Shown: positions 19,894 to 45,736, numbered from the stretch's first letter. The stretch: DNA of 60,593 nucleotides from Actinomycetota bacterium (GCA_039188975.1 JBCCYT010000006.1:1-60593), one strand, 5' to 3'. Program-made: numbers and translations. Notes: generated by a model from the letters alone, not told the origin.

Positions 19894-19963
19894 CGCGCCG
19901 ATCAACCATTTCCATCGTCTGAAGACTGTCCGTCGACGCCTTCTCCACCGACCGCCCCGCAGG

Positions 19964-19978
19964 TTTACAATCTGTCAA
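19964..19978 (+). promoter_or_regulatory. Palindromic operator TTTACA-ATC-TGTCAA overlapping a TACAAT -10 element and the start codon (probably leaderless)
   Basis: TACAAT at 19966-19971 lies 6 nt before ATG 19978. The same motif occurs at 36772. Confidence 0.6.
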
Positions 19979-21435
19979 TGACGGTTGACTGCCTCCATCC
20001 CGTCCAGCGCCTCGGGCGATCGATCGACCGGATCATCCGGCCGACGTCGCTCGACGATGCGCTCGCCGCGCTCGATGCCGATCCGACGATCAAGCCCATC
20101 GCCGGCGGAACCGATCTCCTGCTCGACCTCCATCGAGGCGGCCCGGGTGAACCGGTCACCCTGCTCGACCTCACCGCCATCGGAGAGCTCGACGGCATCA
20201 CCGTCGAACGCGGCATGGTCCGACTCGGGGCCCTCACCACCCACAACGATGTTGTCGGCCATCCCGAACTCCCGATCGTGGCGCTACCGCTCGCCCAGGC
20301 GTGTCTCGAAGTTGGGTCGGCCCAGCTCCGCAACCGAGCGACGATCGCCGGCAACCTGGCAACCGCCAGCCCTGCCAACGACACCATCTCCGCGCTCCTT
20401 GCACTCGACGCATTGGTGACGGTTCGTTCGGTGCAAGGCGAGCGGACCATCCGCCTCGACGACTTCGTGACAGGCTTTCGCACAACGGCGCTCGAGCCGG
20501 GCGAGATCATCACGGCGATCGAATTCCCGAGCCTCGACGACACGACCATCGGGATCTGGGTCAAGCTGGGAAACCGGGCCGCCCAAGCGATCTCGGTGGT
20601 GCACCTCGGGATCGTGATCGACCGGACGAGCGACGGCATCGTCCGAGATGCCCGAATCGCGATCGGCAGCGTTGCCGCCCGCGTTGAACTTCTCCCCAAC
20701 GCGGCACGCAATCTGATCAACCACACACTCGATGACGACACGATCGAGACGTGCGCGCAGCAAGCGGCTGCTGCCATCACTCCGCTCGACGATGTGCGTG
20801 CGACCGCCAGCTACCGCAGGGCGCTCGTTCCGACACTGGTCCGGCGGGCCCTCGAAGCCCTCCGTGACGACGCCGCCGCCAGCCGATGGCCCGGGCGGGT
20901 GCCACGCCTCACCAACCAGGAACGCCCGGTCCGCGTTCCGGCAGCGGACACGAGCGACCGTGCCGTCATTTCGATCACGGTCAACGGTGCCGAACAGGCC
21001 GGCCCACGAGGTGCATCTCGCACACTGCTCGACTGGCTCCGCGAGGAGCTCGCGCTCACCGGTGCAAAGGAAGGTTGTGCGGAGGGCGAATGCGGCGCAT
21101 GCACCGTGCAGCTCGACGGTGACGCGGTCATGAGCTGTCTGGTGCCCGCGGCACAGGCCGCCGACCGCTCCGTCACCACCGTCGAAGGGCTCGGCACCGC
21201 CCACCAACCCCACACGCTGCAGCAGGCATTCATCGACGAGTTCGCCGTGCAGTGCGGTTTCTGCATTCCCGGTTTCATCGTTGCCGGCGCAACCCTGATC
21301 GATGAACTTGCGGATCCGTCGGTCGATGACATCCGTCTCGGCCTTGCCGGCAACCTCTGCCGGTGCACCGGCTACTACCCGATCATGCAGGCCGTGCAAC
21401 GAGCAAGCGTCGTGCCGGTGGAACTCGAGCCATGA
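19978..21435 (+). CDS. Xanthine dehydrogenase-family FAD-binding subunit fused to a [2Fe-2S] subunit
   Basis: IAGGTDL and RNRATIAGN (FAD part); GCAEGECGAC, QCGFCIPG and GNLCRCTGY (two Fe-S clusters). Confidence 0.92.
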   Translation: MTVDCLHPVQRLGRSIDRIIRPTSLDDALAALDADPTIKPIAGGTDLLLDLHRGGPGEPVTLLDLTAIGELDGITVERGMVRLGALTTHNDVVGHPELPIVALPLAQACLEVGSAQLRNRATIAGNLATASPANDTISALLALDALVTVRSVQGERTIRLDDFVTGFRTTALEPGEIITAIEFPSLDDTTIGIWVKLGNRAAQAISVVHLGIVIDRTSDGIVRDARIAIGSVAARVELLPNAARNLINHTLDDDTIETCAQQAAAAITPLDDVRATASYRRALVPTLVRRALEALRDDAAASRWPGRVPRLTNQERPVRVPAADTSDRAVISITVNGAEQAGPRGASRTLLDWLREELALTGAKEGCAEGECGACTVQLDGDAVMSCLVPAAQAADRSVTTVEGLGTAHQPHTLQQAFIDEFAVQCGFCIPGFIVAGATLIDELADPSVDDIRLGLAGNLCRCTGYYPIMQAVQRASVVPVELEP

Positions 21436-23687
21436 GCGTCGGCCACTCCTCCGTCCGACGCGACGCCGCGGCGAAAGTCGACGGTTCCGCGGCCTACGCC
21501 GCCGACGTTGTGCCGCCCGAGGCACTGCACGCGGTGATCGTGTTCTCCGGACGCGCCCACGCCCGCATGATCTCAATGTCGACCACAGCCGCCCGGGCCA
21601 TCGATGGCGTCGTCGACGTCATCACCGCCGCCGACGCGCCGGTCAACGAGTACGGGCTGACCATGCTCGACCAGCCGGCGCTCGTCGGCGTCGATCACAC
21701 CGGCATGGCGCCCGTCGACGCATCGATCAGCCGGTGGGAAGCTGACCAGATCGCCGTCGTGATCGGGGAGACGGCCGCCGCAGCGCGAGCGGGCGCGGCC
21801 GCCCTCGACGTCATCTGGGAAGACCTCCCGCTTGTGACCGACATCGATCAGGCCCTCGAACCGGCCGCCCCCCTCCTCCACCCCGAGAACGGCCTCGACA
21901 CCAACGCCTACCACCACCTCAAGATCCGCAAAGGTGACATCGACTTCGGCTGGGCGGTCGCTGACGTCGTCGTCGACGACACCTACGAGGTGCCCCACCA
22001 AGAACACGCCTACCTGCAGCCCGAGGCGGGTACGTCCTACATCGACGACGAGGGGCGGGTCACGATCGAGGTCGGCGGCCAATGGACAACCGAAGATCGC
22101 GAACAAGTTGCCCACGTGCTCGGCCTACCCGAGGCCCAGGTCCGCATTGTCTACAAAGCGGTCGGCGGTGCGTTCGGCGGCAAAGAAGACATGTCGATCC
22201 AGATCGCGCTCGGGCTCGCCACACTGAGGCTTGCCGAGCGCGGCGAGCACCGACCCATCCACTGTCGCTGGTCGCGGGAAGAATCGATCGTTGGCCACCA
22301 CAAACGTCACCGCGGGCGTATCCGACTACGACTCGGAGCAACCAGCGAGGGAGAAATCACCGCCCTCGAGGCCGACGTCGATCTCGATGCCGGCGCGTAC
22401 AACTACACGTCCAACAAGGTGCTCGGCAACGCCCACCTGTCGGTCGCGGGCCCGTACCGGATACCCAACGCCCGCATCGACTCACGGGCGATCTACACGA
22501 CCAGCGTGCCGGGCGGCGCATTTCGCGGCTTCGGTGGCCCACAGGGGCACTTCGCCATCGAAACGGCACTGAACAAACTGGCGGAGCGCCTCGGTATCGA
22601 CCCGGTCGAGCTTCGGCTCCGCAATGCGCTCCGAGACGGCGACGCGAGCATCACCCAAGCCCCCATGCCGGACGGTGTCAGTATCCGCGAGGTCATCACG
22701 GCGTGCTCGATGCGAGCCGACCTCGGCGAGCCCTTCGGCGAACCCGAGCCATTCTCGCCCATTGCATCGCTGCCGTCCGCGCCGGACGCACTCCGCAACG
22801 GTAGGGGCTTCGCAGCCGGCTTCAAGAACGTCGGCTTCTCGTTTGGCTTCCCGGAACGGTGCGAAGCAGAGATCGTGCTCCACGGTTCGCCAGACGACGA
22901 AACGCCGACGCACGTCGACCTCTATCACGGAGGGGCCGAGGTCGGGCAGGGGCATCACCACGCAATGTTGCAGATCGCCGCTGACGCCACGGGCGTCGAA
23001 CTCGATCTCGTCGACGGGCACTTCAGCGACACCGCGACATCGGGCGACCCGGGGTCAGCATCGGCGAGCCGGTTGACGTTCATGGCCGGCAACTCGATCC
23101 TCGGGGCCGCAGAGGAGGCCGAGAAAGCATGGCGAGACGGCAGCCGGCCGGCTCGCGGCTTCTTTCGCTACACACCGCCACCAACCGAAGCACTCGACGC
23201 TGACACGGGGACTGGCGCCCCCAACTTCTGTATCGGTTACCTCGCGCAGTGTGTCGAGGTCACGGTCGACATCGACACCGGTCACATTCGAGTCGACCGG
23301 GTCACGTCAACTCACGACGTCGGCGCCGCGATCAACCCTCGACTCGTGCAGGGCCAGATCGAAGGCGCAGTGGTGCAAGCGCATGGCTACACGCTCAGCG
23401 AAGACCTTCAACTTGTCGATGGCTTCATCACCAACCCCCGTTTCTCGGGCTACTTGATTCCCGGTATCGGTGACATCCCCCTCGAGGTCGACAGCCAGAT
23501 CCTCGAGTTCGCCGATCCGCTCGGTCCGTTCGGTGCCCGCGGCGTCGCCGAGATGCCGTTCATCGCCTATGCACCAGCATTGATCGCGGCGGTCCACGAC
23601 GCGACCGGCGTGTGGTTCGACTCGTTCCCACTCACGCCGAGCCGGGTCCTCGAGGGACTGCGAGGGCTCTCGACCCCCACCGTCTGA
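21432..23687 (+). CDS. Xanthine dehydrogenase-family molybdopterin-binding subunit
   Basis: QEHAYLQPE, GGAFGGKE, AFRGFGGPQ, GQIEG and GARGVAE motifs; ATGA overlap. Confidence 0.93.
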   Translation: MSVGHSSVRRDAAAKVDGSAAYAADVVPPEALHAVIVFSGRAHARMISMSTTAARAIDGVVDVITAADAPVNEYGLTMLDQPALVGVDHTGMAPVDASISRWEADQIAVVIGETAAAARAGAAALDVIWEDLPLVTDIDQALEPAAPLLHPENGLDTNAYHHLKIRKGDIDFGWAVADVVVDDTYEVPHQEHAYLQPEAGTSYIDDEGRVTIEVGGQWTTEDREQVAHVLGLPEAQVRIVYKAVGGAFGGKEDMSIQIALGLATLRLAERGEHRPIHCRWSREESIVGHHKRHRGRIRLRLGATSEGEITALEADVDLDAGAYNYTSNKVLGNAHLSVAGPYRIPNARIDSRAIYTTSVPGGAFRGFGGPQGHFAIETALNKLAERLGIDPVELRLRNALRDGDASITQAPMPDGVSIREVITACSMRADLGEPFGEPEPFSPIASLPSAPDALRNGRGFAAGFKNVGFSFGFPERCEAEIVLHGSPDDETPTHVDLYHGGAEVGQGHHHAMLQIAADATGVELDLVDGHFSDTATSGDPGSASASRLTFMAGNSILGAAEEAEKAWRDGSRPARGFFRYTPPPTEALDADTGTGAPNFCIGYLAQCVEVTVDIDTGHIRVDRVTSTHDVGAAINPRLVQGQIEGAVVQAHGYTLSEDLQLVDGFITNPRFSGYLIPGIGDIPLEVDSQILEFADPLGPFGARGVAEMPFIAYAPALIAAVHDATGVWFDSFPLTPSRVLEGLRGLSTPTV

Positions 23688-25900: not shown

Positions 25901-27508
25901 ATGAATTCCTCCGCGCTTTCCAGCATCGTGCGACCAACCGTCGGACGAAAGATCGGCGTCTGCCTCGCCGCTGTCGTGGTCGTATCGATTTCGGTGTCGT
26001 TCTGGGAGGCCTCGAAGGCGGCCGAGGTGAACGACAAGGTCCATGACTTCGTCGATGCCGACGCACCGGCCGAAGCACTCTTGCTCAACATCGACCGCGA
26101 CGCCTATCAAGCTCAAATCGCCATCGAACAGATGGTGACAGCCTCGCCGGCTGCGATCGCAGCGCTGCTCGACGACTACGCGGGCAACCGCGATCAGACG
26201 CAAAGCCGGTGGGACGAGTACAAGGCAACCGCTCGTGGGCTCGGCGACGAGCAGGCTCGGTGGCCAGCATTCGATGCGGCGCGATCCGCCTGGGTCGCCG
26301 CGACCGACGACCTTGCTGAACGTCTGGCCGCGGGCGAGCGGGCACCGGACCCGGCACTCATCGCGGATGTCGCCGCAAGCCGCGAACTCTTCAACGGTGT
26401 CCGGGACGTGATCGATCCGATCGTCGAAGAGATCTACGTCCCCAACCACGCGGACTTCAGCAGCAGTGTGGACTCCACCACGGACTCCGGAGAGCGCGCC
26501 GCGTGGATCGCCGCCGTCTTCACGCTGGCCGTCTTCGCCGTTGGGCTCTGGGTCGCCAACCGCATCTCGACGACGATTCGCCGCATGGAGCGTCACGCCG
26601 ATCGAATCGCCAGCGGCGACCTTTCCGAAACCGAGATCACCGTGACCAGCAACGATGAACTCGGCGATCTCGCCACCTCGTTCTCCCGGATGGGCGAGTC
26701 GGTGAAGACCATGGTGACACGGGTGAAGGACTCTGCGGAGGGGCTGCAGAGCGCGTCGGAACGTCTCACCCAGATGTCGAGCAGCATGAACGAGAGCGCC
26801 ACGCTCACCTCTGACCAGGCCAAGAGCTCGTCAGGCACCAGTGAGAACGTCAGCATGAGCGTGGCGTCGGTGGCCTCGGCCGTCGAACAGGTGAACTCGA
26901 CCATCCGTGAGGTCTCCGCAAGCGCAAGCGAAGCCGCTGCGGTCGCCGGCGAGGCGGTTCACCTCGCCCGTGCGTCGTCCAGCTCGATCGGCAAGCTGGG
27001 CGAATCATCAGAACAGATCGGTGCTGTCATCGAGGTGATCTCATCGATCGCCGAGCAGACCAACCTGCTCGCGTTGAACGCCACGATCGAAGCAGCCCGG
27101 GCCGGCGAGGCAGGCAAGGGATTCGCCGTCGTCGCCAGCGAAGTCAAGGATCTCGCCAACCAGACCGCGGTTGCCACCGAGGAGATCGCGGCTCGAATCC
27201 AAGCGATCCAAACCGACACCGCCGGTGCCGTCAGCGCCAACGAACACATCGGCGAGATCATCGATCGCATCAATCAGATCTCCGCGACCATCGCCGCCGC
27301 AGTCGAAGAGCAGTCGATCACTACCCAAGAGATCGGCCGCAGCGTCGAGGACGCGGCCACCGGCTCCCAAGACATCAGTACGTCGATCTCACACGTTGCT
27401 GCCGCCGCCGAGTCGACCCGCTCCACGACCGTCGAGACCCGCACCTCAGCCGAGGAGATGGCCGCGATGGCCGACGAACTCACCGCCCTCGCGAGCAACT
27501 ACCGCTGA
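25901..27508 (+). CDS. Methyl-accepting chemotaxis protein with helical-bundle sensor
   Basis: Two TMs, HAMP (NDELGDL), [30 protein letters not shown]. Start ATG 25901. Confidence 0.92.
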
Positions 27509-27612
27509 TCACACGCACCACCCACCACTCCCACGCACAACCTGACCCACCCCGCACTCGTCACCGGTAGCGACCGGCGCGACGAACCCCAAACCACAAC
27601 AGGGACATCACC

Positions 27613-34918: not shown

Positions 34919-36286
34919 TCACTCCGGGCGGAATCGGCGGGCAGCAGCGCCATGAGCCGCGAGCTTGTCGTCGAGGTCGGGGGCGACAAGGAGACCCGAC
35001 TCGACGATCGAACGACCGGCGACGATGGTGTGCCATGCCGCATGAGGACCGGTGCGCAACCAGCCTTCGATGAGGTCCTCGACCACGCCGGCAAAGATCG
35101 GGCCGTCGAGCTTCCACACGGCAATGTCGCCGACCGCACCAACGGACAACTCGCCGATCTCACCAACCCGACCCAAGCAGCCGGCACCACCGCGGGTGGC
35201 AACTTCGAGCGCCGTCCGAGCGTCCATCGCCGCCGCGCCGCTCTTCAGTTTGCCTTGCAACATCGAGAGCCGAGCCTCTTGCCACAGCGATGCCGAGTCG
35301 GCTGACGACGAGCCGTCGCAACCCAAACCGACATGGCACCCCGCTGCCCGAAGATCGACGACTGGGGCGATACCCGAAGACAGGATCATGTTGGAGCTCG
35401 GGCAGTGCGCAATCCCCACACCCGCTGCGCCGAGCCGAGTCACTTCCTCCGGGTTCGGCATGACGACGTGCGCACCCCAACTGCGGTCCGACATCCAGCC
35501 GCAGTGCTCGTAGTAGTCGACCGGCCGCATCCCGAACCGGGCCAGGGCGAACTCGTCGTCCTCCGCGTTCTCGGCGAGGTGGGTGTGCAACCGAACGTCG
35601 AGCTGCTCCGCCAGCTCTGCGCTGCGAATCATCAGATCGGTGGTGACGGTGAAAGGTGAGCACGGCGCCAACGCAATCTGCACCATCGAGCCATGGGTCG
35701 GGTCGTGGTGGCGCTCCACCGCCCGCTGTGACTCGGCGAGGATGTCGTCCTCGTCGCGCACCGCGGCGTCGGGGGGCAAGCCGCCCTTGCTCTCGCCGAG
35801 CGACATCGAGGCGTACGTCGGGTGAAAGCGCATGCCGAGATCGCGGGCGGCTCGGATCTCTGCGCCGAGGAGATCACCCGCCCGTACAGGGTGGAGGTAG
35901 TGATGATCAGACGACGTGGTGCATCCGGAGAGAGCCAGCTCGGCAAGCCCCACCCAGGCCGCGAGGTACTCCGCTTCCTCGTCGATTGCGTCGGTCCAGA
36001 GCGGATACAGCGACTGCAACCAGCCGAACAGAGGCGCCGAGGTCATCGGCGGGTATGCACGGGTCAGATTCTGGAAGAGATGGTGGTGGGTGTTGACCAG
36101 GCCCGGGGTGACGAGCCCGCCGTCGGCGTCGATCACGCGCGCCGCACTCGGCTCCGGGTCGAGCGACGTGCCCACCCCCGACACAAGGCCATCGGTTACC
36201 GCCACCCAGCCACCGGAAAGCTCTCGTCGCTCCGAGTCGACCGTTGCGACCAGCCCTGCGTTGCGGATCAGCAGATCAGCTGTCAT
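34919..36286 (-). CDS. 8-oxoguanine deaminase-like amidohydrolase
   Basis: PGLVNTHHHLFQNLTR, GGLPPD, APCSPF, HTHLAE, HCPSSNM and GCDGS motifs. Confidence 0.85.
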   Translation of the reverse strand: MTADLLIRNAGLVATVDSERRELSGGWVAVTDGLVSGVGTSLDPEPSAARVIDADGGLVTPGLVNTHHHLFQNLTRAYPPMTSAPLFGWLQSLYPLWTDAIDEEAEYLAAWVGLAELALSGCTTSSDHHYLHPVRAGDLLGAEIRAARDLGMRFHPTYASMSLGESKGGLPPDAAVRDEDDILAESQRAVERHHDPTHGSMVQIALAPCSPFTVTTDLMIRSAELAEQLDVRLHTHLAENAEDDEFALARFGMRPVDYYEHCGWMSDRSWGAHVVMPNPEEVTRLGAAGVGIAHCPSSNMILSSGIAPVVDLRAAGCHVGLGCDGSSSADSASLWQEARLSMLQGKLKSGAAAMDARTALEVATRGGAGCLGRVGEIGELSVGAVGDIAVWKLDGPIFAGVVEDLIEGWLRTGPHAAWHTIVAGRSIVESGLLVAPDLDDKLAAHGAAARRFRPE

Positions 36287-36767
36287 CGGCGATGGCGTTC
36301 AGGTAGTTGTAGATGGTGATGCGGCTGACGCCCATCATGTCGCCGACCGACTCAACGGCCTTGCGAAGCAGGAACGCACCGCGCTGATCGAGGATTCGGA
36401 CCGCCGCCTGCTTCTGCTCGCGGCTGAGCTCCGCAAGCGGTGCGCCGAGTTGTTCTTCGACCGCAGCAACCATCTGGCCGAGGGCATCGTGGAGATCCCC
36501 GAATCGAGCGACGGAGGGCGAATCACCCATCCGGACCTGCACGGCCGTTGCGCCGTGCTCGAGCGCGACGCGACTCATGTCTCGGATTGCGTCGGTGACC
36601 AACCCGGCGGGACCGTGAATCGTGGTCGCAAACGGCCCGAGTTCGGGTTCGAGCCCGTGGCTGCGGCACGCGTCGAGGGCCATCCGTACGTGATGACCGG
36701 GGGCGCCTTCAACGAACGGTTCGACGATGAACTCGGCCCGAATGTCGGCGGTCCCAGCAGTGGTCAT
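36276..36767 (-). CDS. Transcriptional regulator: thiamine-binding/YkoF-like ferredoxin-fold domain fused to a C-terminal HTH (YheO/HTH_22-like)
   Basis: N-terminal EFIVEPF...LGPFATTIHG; C-terminal KQAAVRILDQRGAFLLRKAVESVGDMMGVSRITIYNYL. Confidence 0.75.
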   Translation of the reverse strand: MTTAGTADIRAEFIVEPFVEGAPGHHVRMALDACRSHGLEPELGPFATTIHGPAGLVTDAIRDMSRVALEHGATAVQVRMGDSPSVARFGDLHDALGQMVAAVEEQLGAPLAELSREQKQAAVRILDQRGAFLLRKAVESVGDMMGVSRITIYNYLNAIADDS

Positions 36768-36770
36768 GGC

Positions 36771-36787
36771 TTTGACAGTTTGTTAAA
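36771..36787. promoter_or_regulatory. Palindromic operator TTTGACA-GTT-TGTTAAA in the 31-bp divergent intergenic region
   Basis: Near-perfect inverted repeat; matches the 19964 box. Confidence 0.65.
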
Positions 36788-36798
36788 TTCGGCGGTTC

Positions 36799-38058
36799 AT
36801 GGCAAGTCTCGCAGCCGAGCTTCGTGTCGACGTCGATCGACTCACCAGCCGGCTTGCCGCGCTTGCGGAGATCGGCGCAATCGAGGGCACGGAGGGGTGC
36901 GCCCGGCTGGCGTTGACCGACGAAGACAAGGCCGGACGCGATCTCGTCGTCTCCTGGATGCGCGATCTGGGGCTTGCGGTGAGCATCGACGGCATCGGCA
37001 ACGTCGTTGCGGTGATGAGCGGTGAAGCCGCCGGCGCTCCGGTCATGACGGGATCTCACATCGACACCGTCCGAACCGGTGGCCGCTACGACGGCAACCT
37101 CGGCGTACTCGCCGGTCTCGAGATCATCGAGTGCCTGCAGCAGGCCGACATCACGCCTCCCCGAGACCTGGCCGTTGCGTTCTTCACCGACGAAGAAGGC
37201 GCCCGGTTCCCACCCGACATGTTGGGCAGCTTGGTGTACGTCGGTGGGATGAGCGTCGAGGAGGCCCACGCGATCGAAGGCATCGATGGGGCGATCCTCG
37301 GCACTGAGCTCGACCGCATCGGCTACCTGGGCAGCGCGCCACTGCCCGCGCAACCTCCCCATGCGTTCGTCGAACTTCACATCGAACAGGGCCCTGTCCT
37401 CGAGGCCGAAGCCATCACGATCGGCGCAGTCACCGGCGTCCAGGGCATCAGTTGGACGGAAGTGTCGGTCAACGGTCAGTCGAACCATGCGGGGACGACC
37501 CCGATGGCGCTCCGCAAGGACCCGGGCGTCGTCGCCTTTCGCACCGCAGCCTTCGTCCGAGAGCTCGCCACCGAGCTGGGCGCACCGCAAGTCGCGACGG
37601 TTGGGCGGATGGAGCTGCATCCGAACCTCGTCAACGTCGTTCCGGCGACGGCACGCTTCACCATCGATCTCCGCCACACCGACAACGACGTCCTGGTCGA
37701 TGCAGAGGAGCGCACGATCGCGTTCCTTCGTGAGGCAGCCGCTGACGAGGGCTGCACGTTCGAAACGCGGCGCCTCGCCCGGTTCGACCCCGTGGTCTTC
37801 GACGAACGTGTCGTCGAATCGGTCGAACACGCTGCGCTCACCCACGGCCTGACGGTTCGACGGATGCCGTCCGGGGCCGGCCACGATGCGCAAATGCTGG
37901 CGCGGGTCTGCCCAACGGGGATGGTCTTCGTACCCAGCGTGAACGGCCTCAGCCACAACCCGGCCGAGTACACCGCCGCGGCCGACCTCGCGGCCGGTGC
38001 CAATGTGTTGATGCAGGTCATGCTCGACCTCGCTGCCGATCGGCCCCCACCCGCTTGA
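36799..38058 (+). CDS. Zn-dependent amidohydrolase, allantoate amidohydrolase / N-carbamoyl-L-amino acid hydrolase / beta-ureidopropionase family
   Basis: GSHIDTV, GGRYDG, DEEGARF, ELHIEQGP, NHAGTTPM, SGAGHDA and SHNP motifs. Confidence 0.92.
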   Translation: MASLAAELRVDVDRLTSRLAALAEIGAIEGTEGCARLALTDEDKAGRDLVVSWMRDLGLAVSIDGIGNVVAVMSGEAAGAPVMTGSHIDTVRTGGRYDGNLGVLAGLEIIECLQQADITPPRDLAVAFFTDEEGARFPPDMLGSLVYVGGMSVEEAHAIEGIDGAILGTELDRIGYLGSAPLPAQPPHAFVELHIEQGPVLEAEAITIGAVTGVQGISWTEVSVNGQSNHAGTTPMALRKDPGVVAFRTAAFVRELATELGAPQVATVGRMELHPNLVNVVPATARFTIDLRHTDNDVLVDAEERTIAFLREAAADEGCTFETRRLARFDPVVFDERVVESVEHAALTHGLTVRRMPSGAGHDAQMLARVCPTGMVFVPSVNGLSHNPAEYTAAADLAAGANVLMQVMLDLAADRPPPA

Positions 38059-38071
38059 TGGACATGAACCC

Positions 38072-39097
38072 ATGACGCACGAGATCGACCTGACCACACC
38101 GGACAAGGATGCTGCCGCCGACGGGGCTCACAACGCCCCTCCGCCTCGGGTGCTGCGAGTGTCGGCCGCCCAGCTCGGACCGATCGGGCGTCACGAACCG
38201 CGCGAGTCGGTCGTCGACCGACTGATCCGGCTGCTCGAGAAAGCCCACAGCGAGGGTTCGGAACTCGTGGCGTTCCCCGAGCTCGCACTGACGACGTTCT
38301 TTCCTCGGTGGTACGTCGAAGGGGAGCCTGATCTCGACCTCGATTCGTTCTACGAACGGTCGATGCCCAACAAAGTCACCCAACGCCTCTTCGATCGGGC
38401 CGCGCAACTACGCATTGGCATGTCGCTCGGCTACGCCGAACTCACCCCGACCGGCAAACGGTTCAACACCCAGATCCTGGTGGAGCGAGACGGCTCACTC
38501 GTCGGCTGGTACCGAAAGGTGCACCTGCCGGGGCACCGCGAGCACGAACCATGGCGTGAGTTCCAGCACCTCGAACGCCGCTACTTCGACCCGGGCGATT
38601 CCTTCGACACGTGGTCGTGCTTCGGAGGCGTCGTCGGGTTGGCCACCTGCAACGATCGACGGTGGCCCGAGACGTATCGGGTCCTCGCCCTCAAGGGCGC
38701 CGAGCTGATCCTGATCGGCTACAACACGCCGAAGCACTACGCCCCCGATCCGAGCCAGAACCCCCTCCAGGGATTCCACCACCGCTTGGTGATGCAAGCC
38801 GGGGCGTACCAGAACGGCTGCTACGTCATCGGTGTGGGCAAAGGCGGCGTCGAGGAAGGCGTTCCGTCGTTGGCCGAGAGCTGCATCATCGCGCCCAGCG
38901 GCCAGATCATCCTCGACTGCCGCACCGAAGCTGACGAGGTCATCACGGCCGAGATCGACCTGAGCCTCACCACCAAATACAAAGAGACACTCTTCGACTT
39001 CGATCGCTATCGCCGCCCGGAGGTCTACGGGCCGATCACCGAACAAAAAGGCGCCATTCCTCCCCCGCCCCCATTCCAGGAGCCGTACCTTGGCTGA
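38072..39097 (+). CDS. N-carbamoyl-D-amino acid hydrolase (nitrilase superfamily)
   Basis: FPELALTTFFPRW, YRKVHLPGH, QHLERRYF, CNDRRWPE, GYNTP and GAYQN motifs. Confidence 0.88.
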   Translation: MTHEIDLTTPDKDAAADGAHNAPPPRVLRVSAAQLGPIGRHEPRESVVDRLIRLLEKAHSEGSELVAFPELALTTFFPRWYVEGEPDLDLDSFYERSMPNKVTQRLFDRAAQLRIGMSLGYAELTPTGKRFNTQILVERDGSLVGWYRKVHLPGHREHEPWREFQHLERRYFDPGDSFDTWSCFGGVVGLATCNDRRWPETYRVLALKGAELILIGYNTPKHYAPDPSQNPLQGFHHRLVMQAGAYQNGCYVIGVGKGGVEEGVPSLAESCIIAPSGQIILDCRTEADEVITAEIDLSLTTKYKETLFDFDRYRRPEVYGPITEQKGAIPPPPPFQEPYLG

Positions 39098-41681
39098 CTT
39101 CACCGTCAACGGCGCCGCCGTCTCGGTCGGCGATCACCATGATCATCTGCTCGCCGCATTGCGCGACGAACTGCAGATCACGTCACCCAAGGATGGGTGC
39201 TCCCCGTCGGGACAGTGCGGTTGCTGCACGATCATCATCGACGGCAAAGCGCGAGTGTCGTGCCAGATTCCGCTGCGCAAGGCCGAGGGGAAACAGATCA
39301 CGACCCTCGAAGGGGTGAGCGAACGAGAACGGGACCGGATCGCCGCCTCCTTCGCAGCGCACGGTGCGCTGCAGTGCGGCTTCTGCACCCCGGGGATCGT
39401 GATGCGCACGATCTCGTTGCTGGGGCGTGACGAGCCGCTGACCCGGGAGGACGCCACCCGTCATCTCGGCGGCCATCTTTGCCGGTGCACCGGCTATGTG
39501 AAGATCCTCGATGCGATCGAGTCGCTCGGTCGCGGTGAAACACCGGTAGCGATTCGCGATGGCGGCGTCGGTGGTCGCGGCGTCAAATACGAGGGCGAAG
39601 CGCTGACGCTCGGCGATCGTGAGTTCATCGACGACATGCACCCCGACGGCTGCCTGCACGGCGCCGTCACGCTCACCGAGCACGCCCGAGCCGACATCGT
39701 GGCGATCGATCTCACTCCCGCCTTGCGTATGCCCGGCGTGGTCACCGTGCTCACCGCCGACGATGTTCCGATGGAGCTGCGCAGTGGGCTGATCCACAAG
39801 GACTGGCCGATCTTCATTCCGGTCGGGGGACGAACCTCCTACCTCGGCGATGTCGTGGCGCTCGTCGTCGCCGAGACCCGTGCGCAAGCTCGGGCCGCAG
39901 CCCTCGCCGTCGATGTCACCTACGACGTCCACCGGCCGTTGACCAACCCGATCGAGGCGCTCGCGTCCCATGAGGATGCCGTGTGGACCCTCGACGGGAA
40001 CGAACTCAGCCGCTCGGCGTACGCCCGCGGTGACGTCGACGAGGCGCTCGCGCGCTCGGCCCATGTCGTCCAGCAGACGTTCCAAACCCAGCGGGTAGAG
40101 CACGCATTCATCGAGCCCGAGTCGACCCTGGCCGTGCCGACCGTCGACGACGAGGGTTTCACGACCTCGTTGTATGTGTATTCGGGTGGGCAGGGGGTCT
40201 GGGACGACCGCAACGACATCGCCCGCCAGCTCGGGGTTCCGACCGATCTCATCACGGTCGAGCTCGTCTCCAACGGTGGCGCGTTCGGCGGCAAAGAAGA
40301 CATGTCGAACCAGGGCCAAACGGCGCTTGCTGCGTGGCTGATGGGTCGACCGGTGAAGACGACGTTCTCGCGCAAAGAATCGCTGCTGGTTCACGCCAAA
40401 CGTCATCCGATCCGCATGGAGTACGAGGTCGGCTGCGATGCAGACGGCAAGCTGCTGGCGGTCCGGTCTCGGATGATCGGTGACTCCGGCCCCTACGCAT
40501 CGGTGGGCATGAAGGTGCTCGAGCGGGCAGCCGGTCACGCGAGCGGTCCCTATGTCACCGAGACCATCGACATCGAGGCGGTTGCGGTCCGCACCAACAA
40601 CTCGGTCTGTGGCGCGTTCCGCGGGTTTGGTGCCAATCAGGCACAGTTCGCGATGGAGGGGATGATGGACCGTCTCGCCGAGATGGTCGGCATCTCAGGC
40701 TGGGAGATCCGCAACCGCAACGTGATCGAGCCGGGCGTGGTTTGGGGCCCGGGCCAGATCATGGACGACGGTTGCCGCGGCGCTCGAGCGTGTCTCGACG
40801 CGGTGAAGCCCGCGTGGGACGCCGCGATTGCTTCAGGACGGCCAGTGGGGATCGGGCTGGGCTTGAAGAACTCGGGACTTGGCAACGGCGCCAACGAGGT
40901 GAGCCGGTCGACGGTTCGCTTCGACCCCGACGGCACCATCGAGGTCCGGCACTGCTGGACGGAGATGGGGCAGGGCATCCACACGGTCGCCCGCCAGGTC
41001 GCGGTCGAAGAACTCCGCGTCGATCCGGACCGCATCAGGGTGGTGGTCGACACGAGCCGCGAGCTCGGTGCGGGACAAACGACCGGCTCTCGGGGCACCG
41101 TGATGGGTGCCGGTTCAGTTGCCGACGCATGCCGCAACGCGGTTGCCGATGGCTGCAAAGCGGGCGTCGAGTACGAAGGCGTCTACGTCGTCGACTGGAC
41201 CAACTCGATCAACGACGATGTCGAGAATCCGATCATCCATTCGACGTTCGGGTATGCCGCTCAGCTCGTGGAACTCGATCCCGACAGTGGCGAGATCGCG
41301 CAGGTCGTTGCGGCCCACGATGTCGGACGGGCCGTGAACCCGCTGCTGTGCGAAGGTCAGATCGAGGGTGCGGTCCACATGGGGCTGGGCTACGCACTCA
41401 CCGAGGGCTTCCCGTGCGATGAGAACGGCAAACCCCTCAACGACACGCTCCGCGGGCTCGACATCATCCGACCCAAGGACATGCCGCCGACCGAGGTCAT
41501 CCTGGTCGAATCACCCGATCCGAACTCGCCCTACGGCATCAAGGGCGTCGGCGAGATCGGGCTCGTCCCAACCGCTGGAGCGGTTGCCGGGGCGCTGCAC
41601 GCCCATGACGGCCAGTGGCGCAACGAACTCCCGATGCGCACCGAGCGAAACCAGGAGCGAGCTGCCGCCTGGCAGGGATAG
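39090..41681 (+). CDS. Xanthine dehydrogenase-family molybdoenzyme with fused [2Fe-2S] domain (resembles selenium-dependent Xdh)
   Basis: TTG start; GCSPSGQCGCC, QCGFCTPG, CRCTGY, GGAFGGKED, AFRGFGANQ, GQTTGSR and KGVGEIG motifs; no FAD domain. Confidence 0.88.
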   Translation: MADFTVNGAAVSVGDHHDHLLAALRDELQITSPKDGCSPSGQCGCCTIIIDGKARVSCQIPLRKAEGKQITTLEGVSERERDRIAASFAAHGALQCGFCTPGIVMRTISLLGRDEPLTREDATRHLGGHLCRCTGYVKILDAIESLGRGETPVAIRDGGVGGRGVKYEGEALTLGDREFIDDMHPDGCLHGAVTLTEHARADIVAIDLTPALRMPGVVTVLTADDVPMELRSGLIHKDWPIFIPVGGRTSYLGDVVALVVAETRAQARAAALAVDVTYDVHRPLTNPIEALASHEDAVWTLDGNELSRSAYARGDVDEALARSAHVVQQTFQTQRVEHAFIEPESTLAVPTVDDEGFTTSLYVYSGGQGVWDDRNDIARQLGVPTDLITVELVSNGGAFGGKEDMSNQGQTALAAWLMGRPVKTTFSRKESLLVHAKRHPIRMEYEVGCDADGKLLAVRSRMIGDSGPYASVGMKVLERAAGHASGPYVTETIDIEAVAVRTNNSVCGAFRGFGANQAQFAMEGMMDRLAEMVGISGWEIRNRNVIEPGVVWGPGQIMDDGCRGARACLDAVKPAWDAAIASGRPVGIGLGLKNSGLGNGANEVSRSTVRFDPDGTIEVRHCWTEMGQGIHTVARQVAVEELRVDPDRIRVVVDTSRELGAGQTTGSRGTVMGAGSVADACRNAVADGCKAGVEYEGVYVVDWTNSINDDVENPIIHSTFGYAAQLVELDPDSGEIAQVVAAHDVGRAVNPLLCEGQIEGAVHMGLGYALTEGFPCDENGKPLNDTLRGLDIIRPKDMPPTEVILVESPDPNSPYGIKGVGEIGLVPTAGAVAGALHAHDGQWRNELPMRTERNQERAAAWQG

Positions 41682-41722
41682 CGGTACCCCGGGGGTCGCA
41701 GCTCCCCCGAGGTACCGACGAA
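41682..41722. repeat. REP-like hairpin copy 1 (CGGTACC-C-CGGGGG-TCGCAGCT-CCCCCG-A-GGTACCG-ACGAA)
   Basis: Inverted arms read directly; sits between convergent genes, so it may also act as a terminator. Confidence 0.85.
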
Positions 41723-41732
41723 TGTGGGTGGA

Positions 41733-42611
41733 TCAGCCCGCGGCGCCGAGGACCGCCTCGACCAGCGACGGCGGCACCAGGAGGCCGGCGATCACGTGGG
41801 CGATCCCGTTGGCGGCCATGAGGTCAGCGGTCGCAACCGTGGCCTGGCCGCCGTTGAGGACGACGGTGTCACCGTCGACGGTGACCATGATCGACTCGCC
41901 CTGAACCGTGACGAGTTCGCCGGCCGCGATGACCGCTTCGGCGTTGAACTCGCCCTCGACCGCGTGGTAGGCGAGCACGGCGTCGAGGGCCTCGAAGTCC
42001 GATGTCAGCACGCCGAGCACGGCAGGATCGATGCCCGCAACCGATGCATCGTCGGGAAGGAACACCGTGACCGGGCCCTCGCCGTTGATCGCCCCATCAA
42101 GACCGGGCGAGAACGATGCGTATTGACCGATCTGGGTGGAGCCACCGGCGACCGCTGCGGCCAGCACGTTCTCGGGCGGACCATCTTCAGCTGCCGTTTC
42201 CTCTTCGACGGCCTCTTCTTCGACGGCGGCTTCCTCAGCAACCTCTTCTTCGGCCATCTCCGAAGCGGACGCGGAAGCTGACGATTCCTCTTCGGCCATC
42301 TCCGACGCAGAGGCGGAGTCCGATGCGTCTTCCTCAGCCATGTCGGCATCGGCCGTCTCGTCGTCGTGATCGTGATCTTCGTCGTCGTGATCGTGTTCCT
42401 CTTCGGCCATCTCCGAAGCGGACGCAGAGGCAGATGCAGAGGCTGAGGCAGATGCAGACGCCGAGTCGGACGCTGACGCGGAGTCTGACGCCGACGCGCT
42501 TGCGCCGGCCTCGGTTTCGCTGTCGTCGTCACCGCACGAGGCGGCAAAGAGGGCGAGGGCCGCAATCAACGCAACGGCGACGCGGCGGGTGGGAGACGTG
42601 TGCAGTGGCAT
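41733..42611 (-). CDS. Fasciclin (FAS1) domain lipoprotein with Ser/Ala, His/Asp and Glu-rich low-complexity stalk
   Basis: Lipobox FAASC; (SA)n; HDHDDEDHDHDD; FAS1 motifs TVFLPDD, LAYHAV and ANGIAHVI. Confidence 0.85.
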   Translation of the reverse strand: MPLHTSPTRRVAVALIAALALFAASCGDDDSETEAGASASASDSASASDSASASASASASASASASEMAEEEHDHDDEDHDHDDETADADMAEEDASDSASASEMAEEESSASASASEMAEEEVAEEAAVEEEAVEEETAAEDGPPENVLAAAVAGGSTQIGQYASFSPGLDGAINGEGPVTVFLPDDASVAGIDPAVLGVLTSDFEALDAVLAYHAVEGEFNAEAVIAAGELVTVQGESIMVTVDGDTVVLNGGQATVATADLMAANGIAHVIAGLLVPPSLVEAVLGAAG

Positions 42612-42639
42612 GGGGCGAGAAGCTATCCAGCTCCCCTCC

Positions 42640-42655
42640 GTAAGGCAACCCTTAC
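42640..42655. promoter_or_regulatory. 16-bp palindrome GTAAGGCAACCCTTAC, copy 1 (DtxR/IdeR-like operator candidate)
   Basis: Perfect 6-bp arms, 28 nt upstream of the fasciclin ATG; identical copy at 42847. Confidence 0.55.
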
Positions 42656-42696
42656 GACGAGCACCCCGCGGTCGCCGAACGGGCCCAAAACGCGTT

Positions 42697-42728
42697 CGTG
42701 CCCCCGGGTCGCAGCTCCCAGGGGCACG
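42697..42728. repeat. REP-like hairpin copy 2 (CGTGCCCC-C-GGG-TCGCAGCT-CCC-A-GGGGCACG)
   Basis: Same loop and C.A mismatch as the other copies, different stem sequence. Confidence 0.8.
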
Positions 42729-42763
42729 TACGCTGTCTTTCCGGTCGGAGAGACCAGAGTCAG

Positions 42764-42804
42764 CGGCACCCCGGGGGTCGCAGCTCCCCCGAGGTGCCGA
42801 CGAA
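42764..42804. repeat. REP-like hairpin copy 3 (CGGCACC-C-CGGGGG-TCGCAGCT-CCCCCG-A-GGTGCCG-ACGAA)
   Basis: Identical to copy 1 apart from one compensatory T-A to C-G pair. Confidence 0.85.
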
Positions 42805-42846
42805 CTATTCGCCATCGGCTTGGGGCAAGGTACACAATCAGGCGTT

Positions 42847-42862
42847 GTAAGGCAACCCTTAC
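42847..42862. promoter_or_regulatory. 16-bp palindrome GTAAGGCAACCCTTAC, copy 2
   Basis: Exact repeat of 42640-42655. Confidence 0.55.
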
Positions 42863-42943
42863 TTCTGAGAATCTTGGTGTCGGAGTTCGTGCTCGCCGGG
42901 CGGCGTCGGCGCGCCTCGAACCGAGACGTGGGACACTTCCTCC

Positions 42944-43972
42944 ATGACGGTGTCAACGCCCGGCTTGGTGTGTGCCCATCACCACCTCTACAGCTCGCTC
43001 GCACGGGGCATGCCGGCGCCACCACGAACACCCACTGATTTCCAGGAGATCTTGGACCTCGTGTGGTGGCGCCTCGACCTCGCACTCGATCTCGAAGCAA
43101 TCGAGTGGTCGGCCAAACTGGGAGCACTCGAAGCGCTCGAACGAGGCACCACGGCGATCATCGACCATCACGAATCCCCGAACGCCATCGAAGGTTCGCT
43201 GTCGGCGATCGCCGACGCCTGCCAAGAGGTCGGGGTCCGAGTGTCGTGCAGCTACGGCGTCACCGACCGCCACGGATCCGAAGGTGCCGCAGCGGGTCTG
43301 GCGGAAAACGATCGGTTTCTCGGGGATGGCGAAAACGAGGGTTACGTCGGCCTTCATGCCGCCTTCACCTGCTCCGACGACACGATCGCCGCCGCCGCCG
43401 AACTCGCCCGCAAACACGACGTCGGGGTCCATGTTCATGTGGCAGAAGGCGACGGCGACACGTGGCAACGCCTGGTCGAGTACAGCGACGACGACTGGCT
43501 GATCGTGCATGGCGTGCACCTTCCTGATGATCATGGCGTGCGAGGCACGCTGATTCACAACCCCCGTTCGAACATGAACAACTCAGTTGGGTACGCGCGA
43601 CCGGGTCGTTTCGACCAACCCGTCGGTTTGGGAACCGACGGCATCGGCGCGGACATGCTCGAAGAGTTCAGACTCGCCTATGTCGCCGCCCGGGCGCACG
43701 ACGTGACCGCAACGCCAGACCTCGCCTGGTCGTGGCTCGAGACCGGGTGGGACCTGATGCCTGCCGCGCTCGACGACCGGGTCTACTGGGCGGTCGATTC
43801 GAAGAACCCGTGGCATCTTGCCTTCACCCCCGGCACCTCACCGCTCGAAGTCGAGGTCGACGGCGAGGTGATCTGGGATGGTGAGCCAACCCTCGTAGAC
43901 GGCGATGAGATCCGGGCGAAAGCCGCCGAAGCAGCAGCCACACTCCACCGCCGTCTCGCCGAGCTCGAGTGA
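42944..43972 (+). CDS. SsnA-like amidohydrolase (short form)
   Basis: [52 protein letters not shown] and LGTDG motifs. Confidence 0.8.
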
Positions 43973-44706
43973 TCTCCTACGACGACGACCTACGGGATCG
44001 GCTGCGCACCAATCTCGCCGCGTTCGCCCCTCGGGATCACCCCCTCGAAGGCCGTCGGCATGCCGCCGTCAGCGTCGTCGTCATCGACTCCGATGCCGAG
44101 GAGCACGGCATCGATGCCGCCTGGTGGGCACTGCCCGAGGATGAGCGAGGGACACGGCTCGACCTGGTGCCGGGCCTCCCCCCAGACCATGGCCTGAGCG
44201 GGTCGATCGACGGCACGGCCGGGGGGGCTGCGTTCCTTCTCACTCGCCGAGCTCAGAAGATGAGCGCCCATCCCGGCCAATGGGCGTTCCCGGGTGGACG
44301 GATCGACGACGGCGAGACCCCGGAGGAGGCAGCTCGGCGCGAAGTCGAAGAAGAAGTAGGTCTTCACGATCTCGTCTTGCTCGGACGGCTCGACGACTAC
44401 CCGACCCGATCCGGATATGTGATCCGGCCGTTCGTCTTCTGGGCCGGAGACTCGGCATCGCCGATTGCCAACCCGGCCGAGGTTGCATCGATCCACCGCA
44501 TTGCGATCACCGAGTTGCTTCGCCCTGATTCACCGACGTTCGTCGAGATCCCCGAATCAGACCGACCCGTCATCCAGGTCCCGGTTGGGCAGGACCTCAT
44601 TCATGCGCCGACCGGCGCCGTCATGTACCAATTTCGCGCCGTTGCGTACGAGGGCCGTGATGAACGAGTCGATCACTACGATCAGCCAGTGTTCGCCTGG
44701 CGCTGA
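43969..44706 (+). CDS. Nudix hydrolase, CoA pyrophosphatase-like
   Basis: [14 protein letters not shown], Nudix box [16 protein letters not shown], and NPAEV. Confidence 0.9.
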
Positions 44707-44731: not shown

Positions 44732-45736
44732 TCACAGCCGGTAGACCCGGTTGGCAGTGCCGCTGAACATCGCCGTTTGCTCATCGTCGGCGTACGCCGC
44801 GACGAGCTTCTGGAACATGTTCCACACCACCGAGGCAGGTGCGGAGAGTTTGTCGACCGGGAAGTTGCTTTCGAACATGCACCGGTCCGGACCGAAACAC
44901 TCGATGGTGTGCTCGTACCACCGTCGTTGATCGAAGAGGAGATCGTCGCTGGACGGGGGCCGATCGGCGCGGTGGTACCCGAACCCGTTGTCGGGCATCG
45001 CAAGCCCACCGAGCTTGGCGACGGTGTTCTCACACGCGGCGATCGCAGCGATGTCGTCACGCCACCGCTCGAAGATCTCATCGTGACGGCCTTCGAACCG
45101 GCCGACCCCGAGCGGAGTGCCGAAGTGATCGAGCACCATCGTTGTGCCGGGGCACGCTCGTGCGAGATCGAGAAATTCGTGATTCTGGTGGTGGTAGTGC
45201 CACGAGTCGTAGGTGAAACCCCGCTCACCGAGACGCGAGACGCCAGCCCGAAAGTCGGTATCCGCGAACAGGCCTTCTGGCGCGCCACCCGGGATCGACA
45301 GCTGGTCGGGTTCAAGCGCTCGAGACAACGCATGCCGAATGCCTCGAAAGAGGCCGTCGCTGGCCGCGTCGTGGGCATCGAGGGCTTCATCGAGTCGCGA
45401 AGATCGAAGGTCGGTGTGCGCAACGATTCCACCGATCGGCGCGGCGTCGAGATGTCGCGTTCGCAGATCAGCGGCTGCGGCCGCAACGAACCGAGTTTCG
45501 CCAACCGACTGCACCAGGGGATCGGCGTCTCGGTCATAGGCCGCGCCACACTCGACGAACACCGTTTTGACGATGTTGTGACCGGCCCCGGTGTCGCCGA
45601 CGAGGTCGTCGACGCCATAGGCAAGGCCGTGGCCCGTGGGCCAGAGGTGGTGGTGAGGGTCAACGATCGGTCGATGGGGATCGACAGGAGCTTCCGCTCG
45701 TGTTGCTAACCAGTCCAGGGGCAACGGCCGACTCAT
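44732..45736 (-). CDS. Amidohydrolase_2 family protein (lactonase-like)
   Basis: DPHHHLW, RGIRH, LDHFG, KLGG and FESNFPVD motifs. Confidence 0.9.
   Translation of the reverse strand: MSRPLPLDWLATRAEAPVDPHRPIVDPHHHLWPTGHGLAYGVDDLVGDTGAGHNIVKTVFVECGAAYDRDADPLVQSVGETRFVAAAAADLRTRHLDAAPIGGIVAHTDLRSSRLDEALDAHDAASDGLFRGIRHALSRALEPDQLSIPGGAPEGLFADTDFRAGVSRLGERGFTYDSWHYHHQNHEFLDLARACPGTTMVLDHFGTPLGVGRFEGRHDEIFERWRDDIAAIAACENTVAKLGGLAMPDNGFGYHRADRPPSSDDLLFDQRRWYEHTIECFGPDRCMFESNFPVDKLSAPASVVWNMFQKLVAAYADDEQTAMFSGTANRVYRL

Follow-up and report, generated by a model that had tools for sequence, protein, structure and literature searches.

The stretch of DNA analysed here, referred to throughout as the window (60,593 nucleotides; contig C6), belongs to a metagenome-assembled genome (MAG) of an actinobacterium that comprises 4.73 Mb in 328 contigs and is 96.5% complete with 4.77% contamination. 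The nearest public relatives of this genome, as seen in the scan for relatives of its molybdenum (Mo) enzyme described below, are MAGs of the Acidimicrobiales. An M20 zinc amidase, an N-carbamoyl-D-amino-acid hydrolase (D-carbamoylase), a FAD-less Mo hydroxylase and a short homologue of SsnA are encoded in the window on one strand; a regulator gene, divergent from the hydrolase operon, and an 8-oxoguanine deaminase gene lie on the other (Table 1). An earlier note on this DNA had named all of these genes except the regulator, and domain and family profile hits place the five where it had put them. The operon is tightly packed. The gap between the M20 amidase and D-carbamoylase genes is 13 bases, and the Mo enzyme gene starts with TTG and overlaps the D-carbamoylase gene by 8 bases. 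We conclude that the window probably carries the core of a hydrolytic, F420-linked Acidimicrobiales variant of the reductive urate (2,8-dioxopurine, or "yanthine") pathway, which would scavenge nitrogen from purines in an O2-respiring host.

Table 1. Features of the window. The coordinates of the Mo-binding subunit of the conventional XDH-type enzyme are those of a stop-to-stop frame; its true start is probably near 21430.
Feature	Position	Strand	Basis
Conventional XDH-type enzyme, FAD-binding + 2Fe-2S subunit	19894..21435	+	PF00941, PF03450, PF01799; TIGR02963 297.6 bits, below cut-off 467
Conventional XDH-type enzyme, Mo-binding subunit	21330..23687	+	PF02738, PF20256, PF01315; pucD TIGR03196 491 bits, cut-off 784
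8-Oxoguanine deaminase	34919..36286	-	NF006055 564.4 bits, above cut-off 532
Putative regulator, YkoF/thiamine-binding-like ligand domain + HTH_22	36276..36767	-	PF13309 69.1 bits, PF01910 26.6 bits
M20 Zn amidase, hydantoinase/carbamoylase family	36799..38058	+	TIGR01879 412.7, cut-off 204; NF006771 427.3, cut-off 399
N-carbamoyl-D-amino-acid hydrolase, nitrilase superfamily (CN_hydrolase)	38072..39097	+	PDB 8i99, 1fo6, 1erz matches
FAD-less 2x[2Fe-2S]/Mo hydroxylase, 863 aa	39090..41681	+	TIGR03311 789 bits, cut-off 830.45
Direct repeat, left copy, 50 nt	41673..41722	.	Repeat search, 90% identical to 42755-42804
Fasciclin-domain lipoprotein, 292 aa	41733..42611	-	PF02469 72.4 bits
Direct repeat, right copy, 50 nt	42755..42804	.	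Repeat search
Short SsnA homologue, 342 aa	42944..43972	+	NF005540 249.9 bits (cut-off 444); TIGR03314 234.2 bits (cut-off 455.5)
Nudix hydrolase	43969..44706	+	PF00293 72.2 bits

The Mo hydroxylase contains 2Fe-2S and Mo-binding domains and no FAD domain, an architecture like that of the MOP aldehyde oxidoreductase of D. gigas (1sij, 4e-83). For the Mo domain, the closest match is nicotinate dehydrogenase of E. barkeri (3hrd, 1.5e-60). Among the NCBIfam models TIGR03311 fits the protein best, and the XdhD-type model TIGR03313 reaches only 185 bits. In an alignment it keeps the equivalents of the purine-site residues Q197, E232, R310 and F344 of R. capsulatus XdhB. The position of Glu232 is fixed by the entry of an E232Q variant (2w55) in the same alignment, and nicotinate dehydrogenase has Leu there. 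From homology and gene context, we propose that the enzyme is a urate/2,8-dioxopurine oxidoreductase similar to DOPDH. Glu606 of E. coli XdhD, proposed in the available part of PMC12507026 to orient urate, aligns with Asp560 here; this alignment is untrustworthy at 23% identity and was set aside.

The SsnA-like gene of the earlier note is present, but it encodes only 342 residues, which are 34% identical to residues 53-441 of E. coli SsnA; the first ~52 residues of the E. coli protein are missing. Matches to NF005540 and to TIGR03314, which we take to be the model of InterPro family IPR017700, cover profile positions 58-340. The cluster of orthologues from 61 related loci has a median length of 351 residues. 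Among 25 members that start cleanly (65-83% identity), the metal-ligand positions HxH, His, His and Asp are invariant, and HxH falls within the first 10-30 residues. An AlphaFold (AF2) model built from the 25-member alignment has a pLDDT of 89.3 and a pTM of 0.91. The folds nearest to it are isocytosine deaminase (7ww2), TM0936 (1p1m) and 4f0r, all amidine-hydrolysing deaminases, with template modelling scores of ~0.8 on the query. We rejected the idea that the gene is a truncated pseudogene, since the short N-terminus is common to the 61-locus cluster, the alignment is clean and the model is confident. The short SsnA is proposed to open the ring of reduced 2,8-dioxopurine hydrolytically.

Both carbamoyl hydrolases fall into the classes assigned to them in the earlier note, as judged by PDB and profile matches. 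The nitrilase-type protein matches D-carbamoylases over its full length (8i99, 2.1e-101, residues 26-327; 1fo6, 6e-99; 1erz, 1.1e-98) and keeps the Glu-Lys-Cys triad motifs FPELAL, YRKVHLPG and CNDRRW. These similarities identify it as an N-carbamoyl-D-amino-acid hydrolase with putative D-specificity. The M20 amidase is closest to N-carbamoyl-beta-alanine amidohydrolase (8c46, 1e-83) and L-carbamoylase (8apz, 2e-83), followed by AllC (1z2l, 2.8e-64). Its BLASTP comparison with E. coli YgeY is not significant (E 0.018), and it belongs to family TIGR01879, not TIGR03526. We propose that the D-carbamoylase is a 2-ureido hydrolase that stands in for YgeW/YqeA or UacY, and that the M20 amidase is a 3-ureido (beta-ureido) hydrolase that stands in for YgeY. 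The 8-oxoguanine deaminase is presumed from its family assignment to be an entry enzyme that converts 8-oxoguanine to urate.

A scan restricted to one genome per species yielded 582 confirmed relatives of the Mo enzyme, of which we retained the best 80 loci (68-86% identity) together with as much as 10 kb of flanking DNA per side. Of these, 77 are titled Acidimicrobiia, Actinomycetota or Actinomycetes MAGs; the exceptions include L030 (Chthoniobacterales) and L057 ("bacterium"). Counts over the 80 loci, made by tblastn with identity thresholds, are lower bounds because contig ends cut many loci. The short SsnA is found in 69 loci and the M20 amidase in 54; the D-carbamoylase is found in 60, where its gene mostly comes right before that of the Mo enzyme. 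Recurrence at this level, in 54-69 of 80 loci, goes far past what chance would give. Lack of co-conservation had been set beforehand as a ground for rejecting the route; the set is conserved, and reductase and ammonia-lyase genes join it.

These counts bear on a reading in which the D-carbamoylase and the beta-ureidopropionase-like M20 amidase form a "hydantoinase process" or a Pyd-type module for reductive use of pyrimidines or hydantoins, with the Mo enzyme a mere neighbour. Both hydrolases are of classes used in such routes, and a full-length D-carbamoylase with its triad motifs is shared with the hydantoinase process of Agrobacterium (D-hydantoinase and N-carbamoyl-D-amino-acid hydrolase; 1fo6, 1erz). 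Here, however, the D-carbamoylase gene sits in an operon with a purine-type Mo enzyme and SsnA. The hydrolase genes are packed against that of the Mo enzyme and travel with it and with SsnA in the loci just counted, and searches of the genome found no dihydropyrimidinase, no partner hydantoinase and no PydA-type gene. We regard a pyrimidine or hydantoin module as highly improbable.

The related loci also supply genes for steps that have no gene in the window. A luciferase-like oxidoreductase (LLM), whose best models are F420-dependent, is encoded next to the SsnA homologue in 34 of the 80 loci. Another 23 loci encode a short YgfK of 605 residues with a 4Fe-4S domain, which matches TIGR03315 at positions 4-398 with 428 bits. 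This protein is 33% identical to E. coli YgfK over residues 5-440 and 41% identical over an extra segment (residues 898-979), and the FAD/NADPH middle part is missing. LLM and short YgfK occur together in none of the loci. Two fold-type-II pyridoxal phosphate (PLP) enzymes, PLP-512 (~510 residues) and PLP-374 (~375 residues), are found in 32 and 25 loci, respectively; PLP-512 falls only into unnamed PLP clusters of a protein cluster atlas. A diaminopropionate ammonia-lyase (NF006058, 330 against a cut-off of 276), for which the earlier note had advised a search, is present in 9 loci but was not found in the genome of the window. An amidase is encoded in 15 loci and a Bmp-type ABC transporter in 14.

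The pattern was examined further in 201 genomes of the order (154 of high quality), a sample kept the same for every marker, with genome lists cross-tabulated by hand. Four genomes flagged as unpublished (G042, G065, G143 and G169) enter these tallies only as rows negative for short SsnA and positive for selD. Short SsnA is present in 68 genomes (55 of the 154 of high quality). An LLM orthologue (at least 66% identity) occurs in 54 genomes, all of them among the 68; three more genomes with only 47-49% matches to an LLM paralogue were left uncounted. Short YgfK occurs in 14 genomes, 13 of which are among the 68, and never with LLM; the fourteenth genome is 84% complete. Thus, in 67 of the 68 short-SsnA genomes one reductase is present and the other missing, an either/or pattern that is predicted by non-orthologous replacement of one pathway step. 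PLP-512 follows the same genomes: 56 of the 59 that encode it are among the 68, and the three others, whose completeness is 75-86%, have further markers of the system.

The genome of the window keeps a reductase and the PLP pair on other contigs. An LLM orthologue that is 74% identical to a cluster-linked LLM lies on contig C203 (364-1389). The PLP pair is found on contigs C295 and C154. The 490-residue PLP enzyme on C295 (1186-2655) has its first 127 residues also at the end of C154 (9922-10302), where the two are 99% identical; the contigs therefore abut and were split by the assembly, and a second PLP-512 paralogue at the end of C154 was rejected on the same ground. A same-genus genome (G164) likewise keeps LLM, the PLP pair and YqeC on contigs other than that of its SsnA homologue. 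The F420 synthesis gene cofD is present (CofD, 304 against a cut-off of 257), and the genome encodes subunit I of a heme-copper oxidase. The pathway genes are thus spread over at least three loci. The earlier note was correct that the window holds no YgfK or hydantoinase equivalent; the equivalent of the reductase is the LLM on C203, and no equivalent of the hydantoinase was found genome-wide.

Genome-wide searches for components of the known pathways were otherwise negative. YgeW reached at best 25 bits with TIGR03316 (cut-off 500), and tblastn with E. coli YqeA (carbamate kinase) gave no match in the genome; UacY was not searched for. E. coli YgeX also gave no tblastn match, and a relative's ammonia-lyase matched over only 61 residues. 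The N-terminal part of YgfK was not found in a search of the genome, and tblastn with E. coli MocA and NCS2 purine permeases found none.

In the reductive pathway, as set out in the available portions of PMC12507026, bioRxiv 10.1101/2025.04.24.650524 and PMC12990295, XdhD-YgfM or XdhAC converts urate to 2,8-dioxopurine, YgfK or UacX forms the dihydro compound and SsnA produces ureidomethyl-hydantoin. HyuA then yields 2,3-diureidopropionate, YgeW or UacY together with YgeY yields diaminopropionate, and YgeX yields pyruvate. The Mo enzyme, the reductase and the SsnA homologue map to this scheme by homology, the ureido cleavages by class of chemistry and the last step through the ammonia-lyase or the PLP pair; the mapping fails at HyuA. 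We infer each step of the following model from homology and gene context. Urate would arise from hypoxanthine or xanthine through the conventional XDH-type enzyme and from 8-oxoguanine through the deaminase. The FAD-less Mo enzyme would convert urate to 2,8-dioxopurine by taking off its 6-oxo group, and the F420H2-dependent LLM reductase would dearomatise this product. The short SsnA homologue would hydrolyse the resulting cyclic amidine, and the second ring opening would then require an enzyme to which no gene is assigned. From 2,3-diureidopropionate, the D-carbamoylase would take off the 2-ureido group and the M20 amidase the 3-ureido group. Both groups would leave as CO2 and NH3, with neither carbamoyl phosphate nor ATP formed. 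Finally, 2,3-diaminopropionate or ureido-alanine would pass to the fold-type-II PLP pair in place of YgeX. The ureido intermediates have been proposed to have the R (D) configuration, as stated in the available part of PMC12990295, which fits a D-specific carbamoylase.

In comparing the proposed system with the E. coli cluster (xdhD-ygfM, ygfK, ssnA, hyuA, ygeW-yqeA, ygeY, ygeX; PMC12507026), we found the same logic of two reductions, ring openings and two ureido cleavages. The two also share a Mo hydroxylase beside an SsnA homologue and, in relatives of the window, YgfK and the ammonia-lyase. By contrast, the Mo enzyme here belongs to another subfamily and has no YgfM, SsnA is short, and the reductase is either LLM or a YgfK that lacks the FAD/NADPH module. 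HyuA, YgeW, YqeA and YgeX were not found in the genome, the M20 amidase is not of the YgeY type and both ureido groups are presumably hydrolysed. Moreover, the genes occupy several loci, in a host with an aerobic respiratory oxidase.

The clostridial and enterococcal form (XdhAC/DOPDH of C. sporogenes; XdhD without YgfM, UacX and UacY in C. difficile; bioRxiv 10.1101/2025.04.24.650524, PMC12507026) is closer in some respects. Both it and the system described here have a FAD-less Mo enzyme fused to Fe-S domains whose electron donor is unassigned. UacY likewise removes the 2-ureido group hydrolytically in C. difficile, and SelD and YqeC are present here. In contrast, the hydrolase here is a D-carbamoylase of the nitrilase superfamily rather than a homologue of D-aminoacylase, and neither YqeB nor a reductase of the UacX/PydA type was found.

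The available part of PMC12507026 reports SsnA (IPR017700) in Actinomycetota and, in IPR017700 neighbourhoods, an F420-type reductase in Chloroflexota; LLM likewise stands in for YgfK here. That part of the paper does not mention the carbamoylases or the PLP pair. The short SsnA of the Acidimicrobiales may have been outside the IPR017700 network because its scores are far under the TIGR03314 cut-off.

Several observations weigh against the reductive urate pathway as we read it. The Mo enzyme shares only 23% identity with XdhD of E. coli and falls under the TIGR03311 cut-off, and it has no candidate electron partner because it has no FAD subunit. The purine position that it attacks is not readable from its sequence, a point that the available part of PMC12990295 also makes for the known enzymes. 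The 10 kb on either side of the Mo enzyme gene contain neither a reductase nor a PLP gene in this genome or in its closest relatives (L013-L020), and an insertion also splits the operon in the window. Hydantoinase, dihydropyrimidinase and allantoinase models all stay below their cut-offs across the genome (hydantoinase TIGR02033, at most 153 bits against 393); three dihydroorotase-family paralogues are therefore the only candidates for one of the four hydrolytic steps. The M20 amidase passes the cut-off of the "allantoate amidohydrolase" subfamily model NF006771. Counts in the order overstate independence because the compared genomes are kin. Finally, the genome is a MAG of 328 contigs with 4.77% contamination, in which a gene that is missing has not been proved absent and a gene that is unlinked might belong to another organism.

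The three dihydroorotase-family genes lie on C110 (in a pyrB context), on C103 (116-1159) and at the end of contig C222 (5102-6214). The last was missed by the Pfam search of the genome and found only with E. coli HyuA, whose best matches in the genome are genes of this family at 25% identity. The C103 and C222 genes are candidates for the second ring opening, the type-II paralogue on C103 being a weak lead as the hydantoinase. This paralogue occurs in 15 of the 201 genomes, 13 of them with short SsnA, but is limited to a few families and has uninformative neighbours. A HyuA-type hydantoinase is not among the conserved neighbours in the 80 loci.

The uncertainty about the Mo enzyme leaves room for an alternative in which it is an oxidative hydroxylase acting on 2- or 8-hydroxypurine, on C8 of hypoxanthine or on a pterin-type ring, and in which LLM, SsnA and the carbamoylases degrade that product instead of urate. 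Such a role would suit a host with a heme-copper oxidase and an enzyme whose Mo domain is nearest to nicotinate dehydrogenase, itself an oxidative hydroxylase, and so distant from XdhD. The clostridial Mo enzyme is reversible, according to the available part of bioRxiv 10.1101/2025.04.24.650524, and the regiochemistry of such enzymes is not predictable from sequence (PMC12990295, available part). On the other hand, the equivalents of the purine-binding residues Glu232, Arg310 and Phe344 are kept, including the Glu that nicotinate dehydrogenase replaces with Leu. The cluster is accompanied by two sources of urate, the 8-oxoguanine deaminase and the conventional XDH, and the downstream set parallels the urate pathway step by step, down to the ammonia-lyase in 9 of the 80 loci. 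We consider another substrate or direction unlikely.

The profile score of the M20 amidase suggests a second alternative, an ordinary ureide route in which this enzyme is an allantoate amidohydrolase that finishes a urate-to-allantoin pathway begun by an unrecognised urate oxidase. Both the NF006771 score and the match to AllC (1z2l) favour it. The AllC equivalog TIGR03176, however, gives only 293.8 against a cut-off of 597.75, and carbamoylases outscore AllC in the PDB search. The statement of the earlier note that the window holds no uricase or allantoinase proved true, and it extends further. Uricase (PF01014), HIU hydrolase (PF00576) and OHCU decarboxylase (PF09349) have no match anywhere in the 96.5%-complete genome, so the canonical uricase route, the presence of which the earlier note had listed as part of a refutation, was not found; across the genome, the best score with the allantoinase model is 196 bits, where 358 is required. 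In the order, uricase is present in 5 of the 201 genomes and in none of the 68 with short SsnA, and OHCU decarboxylase is present in 4, only one of which has short SsnA. An ordinary ureide route is thus very unlikely. With a co-conserved set, two hydrolases of the carbamoylase class and no canonical uricase route in sight, the hydrolytic variant suggested in the earlier note gains support at the level of sequence and gene context.

A fasciclin gene on the opposite strand lies in the 1.26-kb gap that separates the SsnA gene from that of the Mo enzyme. It encodes a lipoprotein with an acidic Ser/Ala/Glu repeat and is bracketed by a 50-nt direct repeat that holds a hairpin with a 13-bp stem; the left copy of the repeat begins inside the final codons of the Mo enzyme gene. 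The insertion bracketed in this way measures 1.08 kb. The 24-nt core of the repeat occurs at only these two sites genome-wide, on which ground we rejected the repeat as a genome-wide repetitive extragenic palindromic (REP) element, and the 50-nt repeat was not found in the relatives L013 and L014. In the nearest relatives the insertion is missing and the SsnA homologue follows 23-262 bases behind the Mo enzyme. The fasciclin gene is an insertion that interrupts the operon and stands outside the pathway. A 464-residue open reading frame at 41733-43127 on the minus strand, once a candidate for the SsnA-like gene, was rejected; it corresponds to the fasciclin lipoprotein gene, which in fact starts at 42611.

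This insertion also raises the question of whether the cluster is a decaying remnant, split, stripped of its reductase and lower pathway and no longer functional in this genome. The gap with its opposite-strand gene and the lack of a reductase or PLP gene in the window are what a remnant would show. All frames are nevertheless intact and of full length compared with those of relatives, both this genome and G164 have kept LLM, the PLP pair and YqeC as unlinked genes, and the Nudix gene is still coupled to that of SsnA. A remnant is highly improbable.

The earlier note had labelled the Mo enzyme "Se-type". In favour of the label, the genome encodes SelD (contig C138, 886-1812, locus L101; 368 bits), with one in-frame TGA that is probably a selenocysteine codon, as in many genomes of the order. 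It also encodes YqeC (contig C12, 48658-49320, minus strand; 160.5 against 73; 29% identical to E. coli YqeC), which marks selenium-dependent Mo hydroxylases. A MOSC-domain gene adjoins the YqeC gene (locus L107:6641-7975 and 8314-9114), and an XdhC-family gene lies elsewhere in the genome. Against it, YqeB was not found in a search of the genome with TIGR03309, and the Mo enzyme stays below the cut-off of TIGR03311, a model that we take to have been built around the E. faecalis enzyme. Among the 201 genomes, SelD is present in 135, including 60 of the 68 with short SsnA, and YqeC in 22, of which 20 are among the 68. Selenium dependence of the Mo enzyme of this genome is possible; as a general trait of the Mo enzyme family it is unlikely, because 48 of the 68 genomes lack YqeC.

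The remaining genes around the cluster vary more among relatives. The 8-oxoguanine deaminase (at least 60% identity) is present in 18 of the 80 loci, including the nearest relatives L013-L017 and L019-L021, and the YkoF/HTH_22 regulator is also present in 18. The FAD/2Fe-2S and Mo subunits of the conventional XDH lie within 10 kb of the Mo enzyme in 22 and 21 loci, respectively. Two chemoreceptor genes, one with a nitrate/nitrite-sensing NIT domain, and a CheA kinase gene stand right behind the conventional XDH genes of the window (23584-30021). The Nudix gene overlaps the stop of the SsnA homologue by 4 bases and is thus translationally coupled to it; it occupies this place in only 8 loci, L013-L020, which are the eight of highest identity. 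Its nearest solved structure is a CoA pyrophosphatase (1nqy, 2.4e-13, 53 bits). A role as a MutT-type 8-oxo-dGTPase that supplies the 8-oxoguanine deaminase is unsupported, given this match and MutT models that score far under their cut-offs. An Amidohydro_2 (PF04909) gene after the Nudix gene (44732-45736, minus strand) is found in only 2 of the 80 loci; its closest model, L-fucono-1,5-lactonase, is far under its cut-off.

Elsewhere in the window, further enzymes of nitrogen compounds are encoded at 12499-18129: an M20 protein of the ArgE/DapE type, a TauD-family dioxygenase and a homologue of the Nit6803-type nitrilase, together with a LysR regulator and a protein of the beta-lactamase fold. 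The closest match of the TauD-family gene is 2-trimethylaminoethylphosphonate dioxygenase (302 bits against a cut-off of 400). A 580-residue open reading frame on the minus strand (52526-54268) has an animal-haem-peroxidase domain (71 bits).

A bolder version of the pathway, compatible with oxygen and driven by F420 in aerobic environmental Acidimicrobiales, would dispense with the hydantoinase. The shortened SsnA could carry out both hydrolyses at C4, first of the amidine and then of the ring amide, or the PLP pair could take up the product once one ureido group has been cleaved. Electron exchange between the Mo enzyme and the conventional XDH could in addition allow xanthine to be effectively isomerised to 2,8-dioxopurine at no net redox cost. 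We consider this version decidedly unlikely.

The earlier note had called the route undescribed. This holds for the variant but not for the pathway, which was published in 2025. In the literature searched, Acidimicrobiia or Acidimicrobiales were not found joined with SsnA, F420, yanthine or carbamoylase in the context of urate. Descriptions of the short SsnA, the short YgfK, the pair of D-carbamoylase and M20 amidase or the PLP pair were likewise not found in the available parts of the primary papers, whose supplements may show some of these neighbourhoods. Specific to the window are the dispersed pathway, the attached 8-oxoguanine deaminase and regulator, the coupled Nudix gene and the inserted fasciclin gene.

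The reductive urate pathway has been described, in the available part of PMC12990295, as a property of obligate or facultative anaerobes only, for the most part from the gut. Its core, as we read it, is present in 68 of 201 genomes, a third of a sampled environmental actinobacterial order in which uricase and OHCU decarboxylase are nearly absent. If the proposed pathway is correct, non-orthologous replacement would have taken place at four or five steps, namely the reductase, both ureido cleavages, the final PLP step and the second ring opening. The either/or split between LLM and short YgfK would then offer a ready test of which enzymes reduce 2,8-dioxopurine, and the D-carbamoylase would bear on the stereochemistry and order of the ureido cleavages. 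The reductive route, and not uricase, would be the main means of recycling purine nitrogen in the abundant Acidimicrobiales of sea, soil and sludge.

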